Part shown: positions 1,977 to 4,152 of the stretch, one piece after another
Layout of the letters: each line of letters begins with the position of its first letter
How positions within the stretch are numbered: position 1 is the first letter of the stretch
From: a virus
Direction: 5' to 3' (one strand)
UHGV virus genome: UHGV-0176909
DNA: 18,012 nt
Position numbers and translations under genes: made by a program
The notes under the pieces: generated by a model
Seen by the model: the letters and a program-made list of their open reading frames with translations, nothing else
What the model was told of the DNA's origin: nothing
Database searches by the model: none

Positions 1977-2231
1977 ATGGCTAGAGATGATCCGCACTTT
2001 AACTTCCGTATGCCTATGGAAGTAAGGGAGAAATTAAAATTCAGGGCGGAGGCGAATGGGAGATCAATGAACTCCGAGTTGTTACAAATCGTCCAAGATG
2101 CTCTATCAAAACCATCGCCTGTGACTGGCTATCGCGACGAAGCTGAACGCTTGGCTGATCAGCAGGCAGAGCAGTTCAAGACTGTTGTGTTTGAGACACT
2201 TAAAAAGATTTATGGCAAGGATGATAAATAA
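1977..2231 (+). CDS. mnt: Mnt repressor (ribbon-helix-helix), 84 aa
   Basis: Translation MARDDPHFNFRMPMEVREKLKFRAEANGRSMNSELLQIVQDALSKPSPVTGYR... matches remembered P22 Mnt. It is divergent from arc-ant with the operators between them. Confidence 0.95.
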   Translation: MARDDPHFNFRMPMEVREKLKFRAEANGRSMNSELLQIVQDALSKPSPVTGYRDEAERLADQQAEQFKTVVFETLKKIYGKDDK

Positions 2232-2767
2232 TGCTGCACACAATTCATTTCTTATGCCCCGTTAACACCGCCACTGTTGGGCAACTTCAGAACCACTGTC
2301 TCACCGCATTATCTCAAGGCGCAACTGAATTAAATATCCATATATCAAGTCAGGGAGGGGAAACTGCCGCTGGTTTTACTGCGTATAACTTTCTTAAGTC
2401 ACTCCCTGTTACCGTTAGAACTCACAACATAAGCAATGTTGAATCCATAGCTAATATCGTTTTCCTGGCTGGCTCAGAACGTTTCGCAAACCCATTATCA
2501 AGATTCCTGTTACATCCTCTATTATGGGGCTTTGCCACCCCAGCCGCCGACCATGCCAGATTGAGAGAGTACGGGAAATGCCTCGATAACGATCTTGATC
2601 GCTTCGTTGAGACGTTCAATATCGACATCGGAACCCATATTAGGTGGGCATCCCTGATAGCAGACTCGACCATTTTGGATGCTAACAAGGCTCTTGAGCA
2701 TGGCATAATTAATTCCATAAAAACTGCAAGGCTGGTATCCAATCAGGCAAACTGGTGGGTTGTTTGA
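2231..2767 (+). CDS. ClpP-fold (S14-like) serine peptidase homolog, 178 aa, translationally coupled to mnt
   Basis: Its ATG at 2231 overlaps the mnt TAA stop (TAATG). By-eye alignment to E. coli ClpP: ISSQGG vs INSPGG, AGFTAYN vs AGMSIYD, SNVESIANIVFLAG vs GQAASMGAFLLTAG, RFANPLSRFLLHPL vs RFCLPNSRVMIHQP, ALEHGIINSI vs AVEYGLVDSI. Putative triad Ser72/His95/Asp145. The N-terminal region is shorter than in ClpP. Rare codons (TTA, ATA, AGA, AGG) are frequent. Confidence 0.8.
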   Translation: MLHTIHFLCPVNTATVGQLQNHCLTALSQGATELNIHISSQGGETAAGFTAYNFLKSLPVTVRTHNISNVESIANIVFLAGSERFANPLSRFLLHPLLWGFATPAADHARLREYGKCLDNDLDRFVETFNIDIGTHIRWASLIADSTILDANKALEHGIINSIKTARLVSNQANWWVV

Positions 2768-2795
2768 TGGGTAAATCATGATTACTCCTTATAAA

Positions 2796-2817
2796 AAACC
2801 CACCTGACGGTGGGTTT
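2796..2817. terminator. Bidirectional rho-independent terminator between the convergent peptidase gene and 322-aa gene
   Basis: Hairpin AAACCCACC (2796..2804), loop TGAC, GGTGGGTTT (2809..2817). An A-run lies upstream and TTT downstream on the plus strand; read on the minus strand the stem is followed by TTTTTTAT. It sits directly after the stop of the minus-strand ORF (2822..2824) and 29 nt after the peptidase stop. Confidence 0.65.
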
Positions 2818-2821
2818 CAAA

Positions 2822-3790
2822 TTAGATTTCTGGTTTCATTCTTCCGAAAACCTTTTCTATTCCTTTTTCGTATTCTTCTCTTGTCTCACTCATCGCTGCG
2901 ACACCAAGAAGCTTACCGATATGCTGACGCAAAGCCTTGACACCAATTTCAGAAAGGAACAGATGCAACTTATCAGATTGTTTTCCGTTCTCGTCTCGGC
3001 TGGCTCGAATTTGTTCAAGGATTTTACCTTTACTCTTTGCTAGCGGGGTGTATATCTGCATGTTGGTTAGCTGCCCAAAACGAATAGGCCGTCCTTTCTC
3101 TGGCCTATTCAGGCCGTACAGTCGATACCACTCCTCGTATAGCTCATCTGGAAATTCCTTTTCATATTGACGAGCCTCTTCACGAACAAACGCTTTGAAC
3201 TCGTCAATGACAGCCTGAACTTCTGGACGATAACCAGCAAGCGCATACGCAACCCCCTTAATTCCCGCCTTAGCGGAGGCATTAATAAGTCTCTGTGCTG
3301 CGGCGGCTGCCTTTAACCGTGATTGTGGTAGATCGTCATTATCTTTGGCTTCTATTAGTGCCCTACCAATATCAACAATTGCTGTAATGTCATAACCTAA
3401 CGCTTGATGAACGGTTTTAGACTTCGAAGTAAGTTGAAATTTATAGGGATTTTCCATTTTTCGCTGCAATTCTAGATCTCGGTATTTGCTCATATACTGA
3501 GCGCCAAGCAGTTGATCTAAATCCCTGGCATGTTCACCAATCCCTAGCAACTGAGATAATCCAGTTTTCGTAACAACGACAGTTTTCGACTCGTCATCCA
3601 GTACATAACATTCAGCATCAATGCCAAAATCATCTAAAAAGTTACCACGATGAGTTGCCCTGAGAATCTTACTTTTCCATCTTGCAGCAGCTGCTTTCTT
3701 TGCTATTTCAGAACGCTGCTCTTTAGTCAGCGACTTTGCGCGAGCGATCCCGCCCTTAGCTTTCCCTTCGCCACTTTTCTTTTCAGTCAT
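2822..3790 (-). CDS. Hypothetical 322-aa protein with a Lys/Ala-rich N-terminal putative nucleic-acid-binding motif; function unknown
   Basis: ATG at 3790..3788 (MTEKKSGEGKAKGGIARAKSLTKEQRSEIAKKAAAARW...) is preceded by AGGTG about 10 nt upstream. The track's longer ORF starts at a TTG inside the upstream control region. AT-rich, hydrophilic, ends at the terminator above. Same strand as the late genes. Confidence 0.75.
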   Translation of the reverse strand: MTEKKSGEGKAKGGIARAKSLTKEQRSEIAKKAAAARWKSKILRATHRGNFLDDFGIDAECYVLDDESKTVVVTKTGLSQLLGIGEHARDLDQLLGAQYMSKYRDLELQRKMENPYKFQLTSKSKTVHQALGYDITAIVDIGRALIEAKDNDDLPQSRLKAAAAAQRLINASAKAGIKGVAYALAGYRPEVQAVIDEFKAFVREEARQYEKEFPDELYEEWYRLYGLNRPEKGRPIRFGQLTNMQIYTPLAKSKGKILEQIRASRDENGKQSDKLHLFLSEIGVKALRQHIGKLLGVAAMSETREEYEKGIEKVFGRMKPEI

Positions 3791-3791
3791 A

Positions 3792-3881
3792 ATGCAAGCA
3801 CCTTTATTGTGATGTATGCTTGCATTATATACACTGTACACACATACAAGCAAGCATAAAACTAAAACAAAATGCTTGCAT
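3792..3881. repeat. Array of four copies of a 10-bp quasi-palindrome (ATGCTTGCAT / ATGCAAGCAT) in a divergent control region
   Basis: Exact ATGCTTGCAT at 3816..3825 and 3872..3881. Inverted versions ATGCAAGCA at 3792..3800 and CAAGCAT at 3852..3857. The outer ATGC...GCAT arms are self-complementary. All copies lie in the 156-bp interval between the divergent starts at 3790 (minus) and 3947 (plus). Confidence 0.6.
3804..3853. promoter_or_regulatory. Candidate overlapping divergent promoters in the repeat region
   Basis: Minus strand: perfect -10 TATAAT (plus 3824..3829) with -35-like TTGCTT about 18 nt upstream (plus 3848..3853). Plus strand: -35 TTATTG (3804..3809) and -10 TATATA (3826..3831), 16-nt spacer. 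The 3816..3825 repeat copy overlaps both. Hexamers assigned by eye. Confidence 0.4.
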
Positions 3882-3946
3882 TACAACCGCGCTACTCCAA
3901 CTACACATTATCATCTGGTATCCTGCTCAAAACTAAGGAGGTTGGT

Positions 3947-4135
3947 GTGAAGAAAAAATTTGTAAACGTTGCAAAGTGCGCAATTTTTATATTTTTTATG
4001 ACCTTTTACGGATTTAGTGCCGGAGAAGGTTTCGATCGTGATGCCAATGCATTCAGTTTCTTTTGTCTGTCTATAGTGGTCATAATTGTATGGGTGGAAT
4101 TAAAGCAAACATTGTTTCATGTGCTAGGGAAATAA
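3947..4135 (+). CDS. Small hydrophobic protein, 62 aa, GTG start; two predicted hydrophobic segments
   Basis: Strong Shine-Dalgarno TAAGGAGG (3933..3940) 6 nt before GTG at 3947. Translation MKKKFVNVAKCAIFIFFMTFYGFSAGEGFDRDANAFSFFCLSIVVIIVWVELKQTLFHVLGK has a basic N-terminus and two hydrophobic stretches. Its stop (4133..4135) lies 17 nt from the convergent gene 16 stop. Confidence 0.55.
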   Translation: MKKKFVNVAKCAIFIFFMTFYGFSAGEGFDRDANAFSFFCLSIVVIIVWVELKQTLFHVLGK

Positions 4136-4152
4136 CCATCCATGGCATTTAG

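Follow-up and report, generated by a model that had tools for sequence, protein, structure and literature searches.

What occupies the 1.9 kb between mnt and gene 16 in a P22-like E. coli prophage, and do the genes found there work together or merely share a site? The question arises for the DNA analysed here (the window, the whole stretch of 18,012 nt), for which a sequence-only reading had proposed a sensor/effector ensemble expressed in the lysogen. We consider it probable that the interval is a mosaic accessory (moron) slot with the layout of P22, whose positions have been refilled by three autonomous modules swapped independently of one another. The cargo is ordinary moron cargo throughout, apart from one notable by-product, the cis-element of a P63C-domain gene.

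A cargo slot with the layout of P22

The three open reading frames of the interval were found where the sequence-only reading had placed them, and its claim that none of them is structural was borne out. The features of the slot and its boundaries are as follows.

1921-1949: Pmnt-like promoter, 10/12 matches
1954-1926: Pant-like promoter, 11/12 matches
1977-2231, plus strand: mnt, 84 aa, first gene of the mnt transcription unit (Pfam Arc, 5e-30; Repressor_Mnt, 3.5e-12)
2231-2767, plus strand: truncated ClpP paralog, 178 aa (Pfam CLP_protease, E 4e-12)
2796-2817, both strands: bidirectional intrinsic terminator, hairpin AAACCCACC-TGAC-GGTGGGTTT, T-run on the minus strand
2822-3790, minus strand: P63C-domain protein, 322 aa from ATG (Pfam P63C, PF10546, E 7e-14; phrog_2384, E 1.7e-104)
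3917-3949, plus strand: sieA-type leader with Shine-Dalgarno sequence (AAGGAGG, 3935-3941) and GTG start, GGTATCCTGCTCAAAACTAAGGAGGTTGGTGTG
3947-4135, plus strand: 62-aa protein from GTG, in the sieA position and facing gene 16 (phrog_21338, E 5.8e-45)
4153-6066, minus strand: gene 16, ejection protein, slot boundary (homologous records: DNA transfer / P22-gp16 family)

In P22, mnt-orf59a-t_mnt is followed by P_sieA-sieA, which converges on gene 16, so the earlier statement that this interval carries sieA in P22 proved correct (PMC10883804). The P22 region also holds a minus-strand ORF of 121 aa, and order and orientation are as in the window; the mnt region itself is 93% identical to P22 mnt. 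Judged from sequence, the interval is the family's usual cargo site, the sieA/immI slot of P22. The mnt transcription unit would consist of mnt, one cargo gene and the terminator, the cargo being orf59a in P22 and the truncated ClpP paralog here. A second cargo, a minus-strand gene, would lie between the terminator and the sieA promoter region, a place taken here by the P63C gene with its own cassette. Known P22 proteins such as SieA, which would have spoken against the earlier reading, were not what we found: none of the three cargo proteins is SieA or Orf59a or resembles them in sequence (no match to Pfam SIEA, PF26849; BLASTP E 0.28 and 1.0).

Two further elements of that reading were confirmed. 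The proposed bidirectional terminator corresponds to the hairpin at 2796-2817, which has low free energy on each strand (-14.2 kcal/mol on the plus strand, z -3.4; -17.1 on the minus strand, z -3.8). It sits between convergent genes, is common to the mnt/ClpP-like unit and the P63C gene, and corresponds in position to P22 t_mnt. The repeat-containing control region was located at 3791-3946.

The description of the cassette as AT-rich and rich in rare codons held against the late operon and failed against the flanks. GC content is 42.8% in the cassette versus 50.4% in the late operon (6066-18012), and rare codons make up 9-10% of the three cargo genes versus 2-5% of most late genes. The flanks are about as AT-rich as the cassette: GC content is 44.4% over positions 1-2230, which take in ant, arc, mnt and the end of the tailspike gene, and 45.4% in the 3' half of gene 16, which resembles the slot in low GC and high rare-codon content alike (rare codons: gene 16, 8.8%; ant, 6.7%). 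The low-GC tract therefore extends over ∼1-5100 rather than 2231-4152, and the composition of the cassette is not distinct from that of the immI flank. The sole outliers are the small ORF (34.9% GC) and both intergenic regions (38-39%).

A small predicted membrane protein behind the sieA-type leader

The leader at 3917-3949 differs by a single base from that of P22 sieA (L119, 2786-2818), and other prophages have this piece ahead of four further cargo ORFs. The alternative cargos in the sieA position all carry envelope-type signatures. These data indicate that the P22 sieA slot is refilled by recombination at the conserved sieA leader and GTG, which brings various envelope proteins behind the same expression signals.

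The 62-aa product is a predicted two-segment membrane protein, with hydrophobic segments at residues 5-23 and 32-61. Its homologs in Salmonella and Serratia are exactly 62 aa long and 79-82% identical, and dN/dS against the Salmonella copies is ∼0.3. In the loci that we read the gene always adjoins the 3' end of gene 16, and it is unannotated in most RefSeq records. A longer version of 87 aa, beginning at ATG 3872, was rejected: its first 25 codons are leader common to unrelated ORFs, and the exact length of the homologs argues against it as well. As in the location that marks SieA, the ORF lies between genes 16 and 9, on the plus strand and behind a sieA leader; the SieA motif FxRYPxEAxxFNK is absent from the protein. 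Its interpretation as a SieA fragment or an Orf59a homolog was rejected (BLASTP against P22 SieA, E 0.28). We nominate this membrane protein as a candidate minimal exclusion factor.

The P63C gene and its four-site array

The P63C profile matched residues 199-286 of the minus-strand product with 52.7 bits (cut-off 26.1). A basic N-terminal motif and a beta-rich domain precede the helical P63C domain, and full-length homologs number in the thousands. Pfam returned no match for residues 1-190 even at E 10, and Foldseek against BFVD none at E <= 0.001, its weaker matches having a Bro-N/KilA-N/Ant-N theme in the N-terminal beta-rich domain. A comparison by hhalign of the P63C family with Ant, the Bro-N protein of the window, gave 0.4%. 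We found no functional study of the P63C domain or PF10546 in the literature.

P63C genes occupy many sites. In Klebsiella, Yersinia and ST104 the interval from cI to N contains a homolog, and in Enterobacter the interval from Q to holin; 933W has one in its nin region, and Streptococcus one flanked by repressor and integrase. In one slot variant the gene stands beside the tailspike and an immI region is absent. The gene is divergently paired with an IS1-family DDE transposase at 41 of 80 species-level loci; the window's slot contains no transposase. Convincing terminal inverted repeats of a putative IS1-P63C element were seen in L043 alone (48 nt) and suggestive ones in L047, and nine other loci showed none. 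A literature search for an IS1-family or ISPa14 passenger gene like P63C found no prior description.

Upstream of the gene, the window contains four related sites.

3792-3801, site 4: GTGCTTGCAT on the gene strand, between the Shine-Dalgarno sequence and ATG
3816-3825, site 3: ATGCAAGCAT on the gene strand, overlapping the -10 hexamer and the transcription start predicted for P63C
3848-3857, site 2: ATGCTTGCTT on the gene strand, last half degenerate, holding a -35-like TTGCTT 18 nt from the -10
3872-3881, site 1: ATGCAAGCAT on the gene strand

Exact TGCWWGCA occurs only three times in the 18-kb window, each time within 3793-3880. The motif is present between -150 and +5 of the P63C gene at 58 of 77 loci from many bacterial phyla, and its density is 15.8 per kb in that interval versus 0.055 per kb elsewhere in the loci, a ∼290-fold difference. 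Sites are placed at about -86, -62, -31 and -7, with spacers that are not conserved and no flanking covariation. At most of the 58 motif-carrying loci the equivalent of site 4 overlaps the start codon (TGCTTGCATG). The site 2 variant ATGCTTGCTTGT recurs in enterobacterial relatives (L035-L038, L114), and the reverse complement of site 1 forms the -35 of the divergent promoter in IS1-linked copies.

A promoter scan detected no consensus site for either divergent promoter (P63C or small gene). Read by eye, a minus-strand TATAAT at 3829-3824 runs two bases into site 3, giving the P63C promoter a perfect -10 and a -35 with only 3/6 matches; the small-gene promoter is weak by eye. A sigma-70-type P63C promoter would be embedded in four ATGCWWGCAT sites, which overlap both promoter hexamers, the transcription start and the start codon. 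The P63C protein would most likely bind the four sites and repress its own transcription, and it may repress the divergent promoter too. We propose, tentatively and as a possibility only, that P63C and its four sites form a self-regulating module which originated as an accessory gene of an IS1-family transposon and has been repeatedly captured by phages. Here it would repress itself and gate the divergent gene in the sieA position, its C-terminal domain having an activity of the defence, exclusion or mobile-DNA type. The transposon would have spread across bacterial phyla, and temperate phages would have taken the gene into positions expressed in the prophage, namely the sieA slot, the junction of Q and holin, and the place downstream of cI. 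For a family so far uncharacterised, the four-site element with its embedded promoter and the link to IS1-family transposases offer a first testable handle.

An alternative that we regard as unlikely, if worth keeping in mind, is that P63C acts alone, in the manner of BstA, as an abortive-infection or defence factor, the array being an aba-like self-immunity element besides, or instead of, an operator. The protein would then have a DNA-binding N-terminal domain and an effector C-terminal domain. Position favours this alternative, since the Klebsiella and Yersinia homologs (60-72% identity) and ST104 orf23 (29%) lie directly downstream of cI, the site of bstA in BTP1. So do the BstA-like length of ∼320 aa and two-part architecture, the weak fold matches to KilA-N/Bro-N domains, and a conserved cis-element which, like aba, overlaps the gene start. 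However, hhalign of P63C against BstA found no sequence relationship (probability 5%), and PADLOC gave no match for four members of the family (the window protein and three distant homologs). Moreover, of the P63C homologs elsewhere, half are paired with an IS1-family transposase and do not sit in prophages, and in 933W and an Enterobacter prophage the gene runs with lytic transcription.

The array might instead act in RNA, sites 1:2 and 3:4 forming 5' UTR hairpins, the second of which hides the Shine-Dalgarno sequence and AUG, with a 2:3 pairing as the alternative state of a translational switch. The sites are indeed mutually complementary, site 4 lies over the start codon with the Shine-Dalgarno sequence in the loop, and Rfam hairpin models gave weak sub-threshold matches on the minus strand. 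Yet a TAnnAT -10 ends in site 3 and a TTGCAT/TTGCAA -35 in site 2, so that transcription is predicted to start within or after site 3, leaving sites 1-3 outside the mRNA, which counts against action at the RNA level. The 8-mers are invariant, without compensatory changes, and pairing at the positions that flank them is no commoner than base frequencies predict. Rfam on 3600-4200 returned no family at threshold, only spurious miRNA-hairpin matches far below it. We regard an RNA switch as improbable, and retain operator sites for P63C as the preferred reading of the array.

Three genes that travel separately

On the earlier reading the three genes would be one lysogen-expressed defence system, with P63C as nucleic-acid sensor and the ClpP-like and membrane proteins as effectors. 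They do adjoin one another in a slot known for exclusion genes. In a survey of 5,426 complete E. coli genomes, from collections biased towards clinical E. coli, the ClpP-like gene was carried by 126, the P63C gene by 46 (with ∼17 further genomes at 88% identity) and the small gene by 85, and no genome had all three, although each gene is common. A query of 1900-4300 was covered to at least 80% in one E. coli genome only, which lacks the small gene.

Instead, the genes assort independently among E. coli, Salmonella and phage genomes, each turning up singly or beside different partners, and also in prophages of other types. Slots contained mnt-ClpP with a Panacea/toxin-like pair; mnt-ClpP with a HicA/HicB-like pair, a lipoprotein and the 62-aa gene; or mnt with P63C and SieA. 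In the window, the three genes form separate transcription units on alternating strands. The sequence-only reading had suggested defence-system finders as a check: PADLOC-DB v2.0.0 contained no defence model matching any of the three proteins at E <= 1, and PADLOC on eight proteins from related loci found nothing relevant. The ClpP-like and P63C genes lie side by side in two independent configurations (GF66.2, and CP165539.1, whose P63C gene is a variant with just 54% identity), which could hint at a functional link beyond mere slot sharing for this pair.

Taken together, the assortment data have already largely refuted a single defence system, which we now consider very unlikely. Since the genes assort independently, and unrelated prophage types contain the ClpP-like or the P63C gene on its own, the proposed sensor/effector ensemble is not supported. 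Comparative data thus split the cassette into three separately travelling units; a coherent-looking hotspot cassette need not be a system, and defence prediction from adjacency alone would be wrong here. The proposal of expression in the lysogen fared better, in that the placement of two of the three genes, the ClpP-like gene behind mnt and the small gene behind the sieA leader, predicts expression from the prophage.

A truncated ClpP paralog coupled to mnt

The ClpP-like gene takes the position of P22 orf59a, and its ATG overlaps the mnt stop codon (TAATG). Since it is translationally coupled to mnt, it would be expected wherever Mnt is made, i.e., in the lysogen. Among the 126 E. coli genomes it nearly always adjoins an Arc-family mnt gene, and there and in Salmonella the ORF is intact and 95-100% identical. 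Homologs with 53-58% identity are lone opposite-strand genes in other prophage types: the Klebsiella one separates the lysis genes from terminase, the Proteus one is downstream of N, and the Chromobacterium one separates tail genes from lysis genes. We flag this short ClpP paralog without a gate as a moron that stands alone and is widespread among prophages. No prior description was found in the literature of a P22-like Clp protease next to mnt or of ClpP-like prophage anti-phage defence.

CLP_protease matched with 46.7 bits (cut-off 20.2), and all NCBIfam ClpP equivalog models remained far below their cut-offs. Because the match covers profile positions 37-180 of 182, the N-terminus of ClpP is missing, and with it the axial loops and the gate at which AAA+ unfoldases dock. 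Across 59 homologs Ser72 and His95 never vary, whereas the position of the canonical Asp lacks conservation, although Asp145 is present at this third triad position in the window protein. Among solved structures the closest is PDB 9UXT (phmmer E 4.6e-35, with an end-to-end alignment). By homology to that structure, the protein is expected to form a tetradecamer with an open pore and no N-terminal gate, and to show little intrinsic peptidase activity at its Ser-His active site; co-assembly with host ClpP may also occur.

We give hardly any credence to a leftover or misplaced head-maturation protease without a role in the lysogen: its best PHROG is phrog_94, head maturation protease (5e-21), and an identical protein of phage phiv205-1 is annotated as such, but the NCBIfam ClpP-related head-maturation model NF045542 scored only 49.7 bits (cut-off 120), the gene lies outside the morphogenesis operon, on the strand opposite the late operon and fused to mnt, the conservation of the intact ORF speaks against a leftover, the closest characterised relative is a cellular ClpP paralog, and P22-type capsid maturation is not known to involve a prohead protease.

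Comparison with known systems

Iyer, Koonin and Aravind reportedly defined the P63C domain in 2002 within the Bro-N / KilA-N / Ant class. Regulators of this class supplied the top weak fold matches of the N-terminal domain of our P63C protein; against such a kinship stand the Pfam search of residues 1-190 and the hhalign comparison with Ant, both negative.

BstA of prophage BTP1, which acts by abortive infection with aba as its 63-bp element (PMC8585504), is likewise a single prophage protein of ∼310-320 aa with a putative DNA-binding N-terminal half, and the two share the place downstream of cI, taken by P63C homologs, and a conserved DNA element over the gene start. Whereas aba is 63 bp long, the element of P63C consists of four palindromic sites in an array in which a promoter is embedded. 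The proteins have no detectable homology.

At the IS1-paired loci, the overlap of the four sites with both divergent promoters recalls the repression of IS1 by a small DNA-binding protein, InsA. Unlike InsA, to which it is unrelated, P63C is much larger and encoded on the opposite strand; the window lacks a transposase, and terminal inverted repeats around both P63C and a transposase are clear only in L043.

Closest to the ClpP-like protein is ClpP1 of Pseudomonas plecoglossicida (PDB 9UXT), a weakly active enzyme with a Ser-His-Pro triad, no N-terminal helix and a 42.7 A pore (PMC12900304). Both belong to a short ClpP subfamily (178 aa in the window, 183 aa in PpClpP1), both keep the catalytic Ser and His, and both lack the N-terminal helix and axial loops. 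They differ at the third triad position, Pro151 in PpClpP1 and Asp145-Ser146 in the window protein, and in that the window gene is prophage cargo coupled to mnt.

With P22 itself, the differences lie in the cargo: the ClpP-like gene replaces orf59a, P63C replaces the 121-aa HExxH ORF, and the 62-aa protein replaces the 164-aa SieA. Order, strands and boundaries are those of the P22 immI/sieA region, with a terminator-ended mnt unit, a minus-strand ORF and a plus-strand gene facing gene 16, and the sieA leader, Shine-Dalgarno sequence and GTG are retained nearly identical in the window.

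The interval between gene 16 and mnt is the sieA slot of P22

The window belongs to a P22-like (Lederbergvirus) phage or prophage of E. coli. The nearest relatives in the phage collection (JEP4, phiv205-1, EC.P3 and CUS-3) match 57-79% of its length at ~96% identity. The immI control region of the window looks intact, with both promoters in place. The three genes that a sequence-only reading had placed in the interval are all real ORFs, each with a Pfam and/or PHROG family match.

Features in and around the gene 16-mnt interval
778-1722, minus strand: Ant
1725-1949, minus strand: Arc
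1954-1926: Pant-like promoter, immI control region
1921-1949: Pmnt-like promoter, immI control region
1977-2231, plus strand: Mnt
2231-2767, plus strand: ClpP-like gene, 178 aa; Pfam CLP_protease
2796-2817: stable hairpin between the convergent ClpP-like and P63C genes
2822-3790, minus strand: P63C gene, 322 aa from ATG; Pfam P63C, phrog_2384 (E 1.7e-104)
3947-4135, plus strand: small gene, 62 aa from GTG; phrog_21338
4153-6066, minus strand: gene 16, last gene of the late operon
~17964 down to gene 16, minus strand: late operon

The 322-aa reading of the P63C gene is also annotated in homologous records, and the small-protein match spans the full 62-residue profile of phrog_21338. The hairpin, proposed earlier as a bidirectional terminator, can terminate both convergent genes, and the repeats of the proposed control region are present in the 156-bp divergent intergenic region.

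Identification of the interval as the P22 sieA slot, a location for cargo, was borne out by comparison with P22 (P22-pbi, AF527608), whose slot has the same topology and orientation. There, mnt and orf59a are followed by the terminator t_mnt, a minus-strand ORF of 121 aa that carries no annotation, and then sieA behind its promoter, up to the end of gene 16. In the window, the orf59a position within the mnt unit holds the ClpP-like gene, its ATG overlapping the mnt stop (TAATG), and the minus-strand ORF position holds P63C. Window positions 3917-3949 (GGTATCCTGCTCAAAACTAAGGAGGTTGGTGTG) are one base off the P22 sieA leader, Shine-Dalgarno and GTG (AF527608 2786-2818), so that the switch from sieA to the 62-aa ORF falls exactly on the start codon. 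Of 66 sequenced P22-like phages, only 22 carry sieA, which is located between genes 16 and 9 (PMC10883804). The P22 minus-strand ORF (AF527608 2419-2796, minus strand; ~121-125 aa, not annotated in that record) lies between t_mnt and the sieA promoter, diverges from sieA and has a HECAH (HExxH-like) motif.

The interval had also been described as AT-rich and rich in rare codons. Its GC content (42.8%) is lower than that of the late operon (50.4%), but the supposedly canonical ant-arc-mnt flank (1-2230; 44.4%) and the 3' half of gene 16 (4153-5100; 45.4%) are similarly low, and distinctly AT-rich parts are limited to the small ORF (34.9% GC) and intergenic regions (38-39%). Likewise, the share of rare codons is 9-10% for the three cargo genes, but 8.8% for gene 16 as a whole and 6.7% for ant. 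The earlier observation was largely real, if less distinctive than stated. Similarity to JEP4 (99.7%) begins within the slot at ~3903 and continues into gene 16, which, together with the low GC of the 3' half of gene 16, places a mosaic boundary inside this gene. Mutations by which P22 escapes SieA map to gene 16.

The three genes assort separately

In a survey of 5,426 complete E. coli genomes, 126 had the ClpP-like gene, which nearly always adjoined an Arc-family mnt gene; 46 had the P63C gene, with ~17 more at 88% identity; and 85 had the small gene, mostly without annotation. A query of 1900-4300 was at least 80% covered in one of these genomes only, GF66.2, where a lipoprotein gene stands in place of the small ORF. 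Other fillings of the slot combine mnt-ClpP with a Panacea-domain/toxin-like pair, with a P63C variant of 54% identity or, in Salmonella, with a HicA/HicB-like pair, a lipoprotein and the 62-aa gene; mnt also occurs with P63C and SieA, and the P63C gene without any immI region. Toxin-antitoxin-type pairs occupy the middle position of the slot in other P22-like prophages (L004 4090-4957, L002 3628-4494 and L118 1983-2519); one joins a Panacea-domain protein to a protein of 139 aa that weakly matches NsnC, another a HicA toxin to a DUF1902 protein.

Both larger genes also occur alone in unrelated prophage types. Lone opposite-strand ClpP-like homologs of 53-58% identity lie between lysis genes and terminase (Klebsiella), next to N (Proteus) and between tail and lysis genes (Chromobacterium). 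P63C homologs are found between cI and N in Klebsiella, Yersinia and phage ST104; the 933W homolog is in the nin region, that of Enterobacter lies between Q and holin, and that of Streptococcus between repressor and integrase. In the Enterobacter prophage (L032), the stretch ~3830-3920 between the Q-like antiterminator and the P63C gene is tRNA-gene-like by eye.

None of the three cargo proteins matched a PADLOC model. Because the genes assort separately, keep other partners, occur alone elsewhere and match no PADLOC model, the proposal that they form one sensor/effector module is unsupported. We conclude that three modules, each in its own transcription unit, make up the interval. What the interpretation drew from location, a cargo of the sieA slot that is probably lysogen-expressed, is supported; no known defence system is found among the cargo, and all functions proposed for it are putative.

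The ClpP-like and P63C proteins

The closest solved relative of the ClpP-like protein is ClpP1 of Pseudomonas plecoglossicida (PDB 9UXT; E 4.6e-35, end-to-end alignment). That protein is an N-terminally truncated ClpP and assembles as a homotetradecamer whose axial pore measures 42.7 A; it has a Ser-His-Pro site and low peptidase activity, and the complex that it can form with housekeeping ClpP is more active (PMC12900304). Ser72 and His95 of the window protein are invariant across 59 homologs; the canonical Asp position lacks such conservation. The phiv205-1 annotation as "head maturation protease" is unsupported (score 49.7 bits, cut-off 120; wrong operon, wrong strand). Since the ClpP-like gene is coupled to mnt, itself expressed in P22 lysogens, it is likely to be expressed in the lysogen. 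In Gally, a P22-like prophage of E. coli LF82, mnt and four neighbouring rightmost genes are induced 6- to 40-fold in macrophages (PMC9928086).

At E <= 1e-3 the large P63C family has 3,092 representatives of 50%-identity clusters, most of them full-length proteins (~320-350 aa). The AlphaFold model is confident for a beta-rich domain (residues ~43-170) and moderate for the helical P63C part; no relative was found among solved structures. Likeness to Bro-N, KilA-N and Ant-N domains is weak, and identity with BstA, the abortive-infection protein of prophage BTP1, was ruled out by profile comparison.

A four-site element precedes P63C genes across phyla

Four ATGCWWGCAT near-palindromes lie upstream of the window P63C gene, at -91, -67, -35 and -11 (sites 1-4).

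Control elements of the P63C gene
3792-3881, non-coding, upstream of the P63C gene: four-site array
3853-3848, minus strand: promoter -35, TTGCTT; spacer to -10, 18 nt
3829-3824, minus strand: promoter -10, TATAAT
L016 ~3360-3395; L032 3967-4000; L035-L114, upstream of the P63C match: same element in other loci

The array also precedes a 62%-identical P63C gene in a different prophage context and the 29%-identical orf23 of ST104. We assembled 80 species-level P63C loci from Acidobacteriota, Myxococcota, Alpha-, Beta- and Gammaproteobacteria, Firmicutes and others; the gene start could be called in 77. TGCWWGCA was present within -150 to +5 of the gene in 58 of these 77, at a density of 15.8 per kb versus 0.055 per kb in the remainder of the loci. 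Sites typically lie at -86, -62, -31 and -7, the last overlapping the ATG. The -35 hexamer (TTGCAT/TTGCAA) falls inside site 2, and the final two bases of the -10 hexamer (TAnnAT) are also the first two of site 3. Such a layout of promoter and sites is the predicted anatomy of an autoregulated promoter: the P63C protein is probably the factor bound to the four sites, and so would act on its own promoter. An immunity element like aba, the DNA element that confers self-immunity to BstA, is a possible reading of the array. RNA hairpins are possible too, but the 8-mers are invariant and their flanking positions pair no more than expected. Spacers between sites are not conserved. The inverted repeat of the 933W homolog (ACGTGCATATTTAAATATTGCACGT) differs from the ATGCWWGCAT array.

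The sieA leader precedes interchangeable cargo

The 62-aa protein has two hydrophobic segments. Its homologs in Salmonella and Serratia are exactly 62 aa long (79-82% identity), and with a dN/dS of ~0.3 the gene is conserved and under purifying selection. It adjoins the end of gene 16 in every locus read; most RefSeq E. coli records and phage JEP4 carry it without annotation. In other prophages the sieA-type leader precedes SieA type B, a 99-aa signal-peptide protein or a 109-aa membrane-anchored coiled-coil protein, and a close variant with ATG precedes a 161-aa lipoprotein (LAGC lipobox). All of these are envelope proteins, and the leader/GTG junction resembles a docking point where recombination swaps cargo. 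The conserved leader, Shine-Dalgarno and GTG junction (window, P22 and L019-L034) is followed by five or more unrelated envelope-protein ORFs. By analogy, an exclusion-type role would fit the 62-aa protein.

P63C is associated with an IS1-family transposase

P63C is paired with a divergent IS1-family DDE transposase in 41 of the 80 loci, ~110-140 bp start to start (e.g., L045 1502-3751 and L043 1444-3804). DNA similarity of this two-gene unit between phyla is 72-75% over ~2.0-2.3 kb covering both genes, as between an Oscillospiraceae MAG and a Deltaproteobacteria MAG. In one locus, L043, a 48-nt terminal inverted repeat (GGTrGTGTCTCAsTTTGAA) surrounds both genes. P63C looks like the accessory gene of an IS1-family element. 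In the literature searched, neither the cross-phylum P63C operator cassette nor its IS1 association was found described, and we regard the two as the most interesting by-product of this analysis. In IS1-paired copies the -35 of the transposase promoter comes from site 1, read as its reverse complement; P22-like prophages have the sieA-type leader and its cargo in place of the transposase side.
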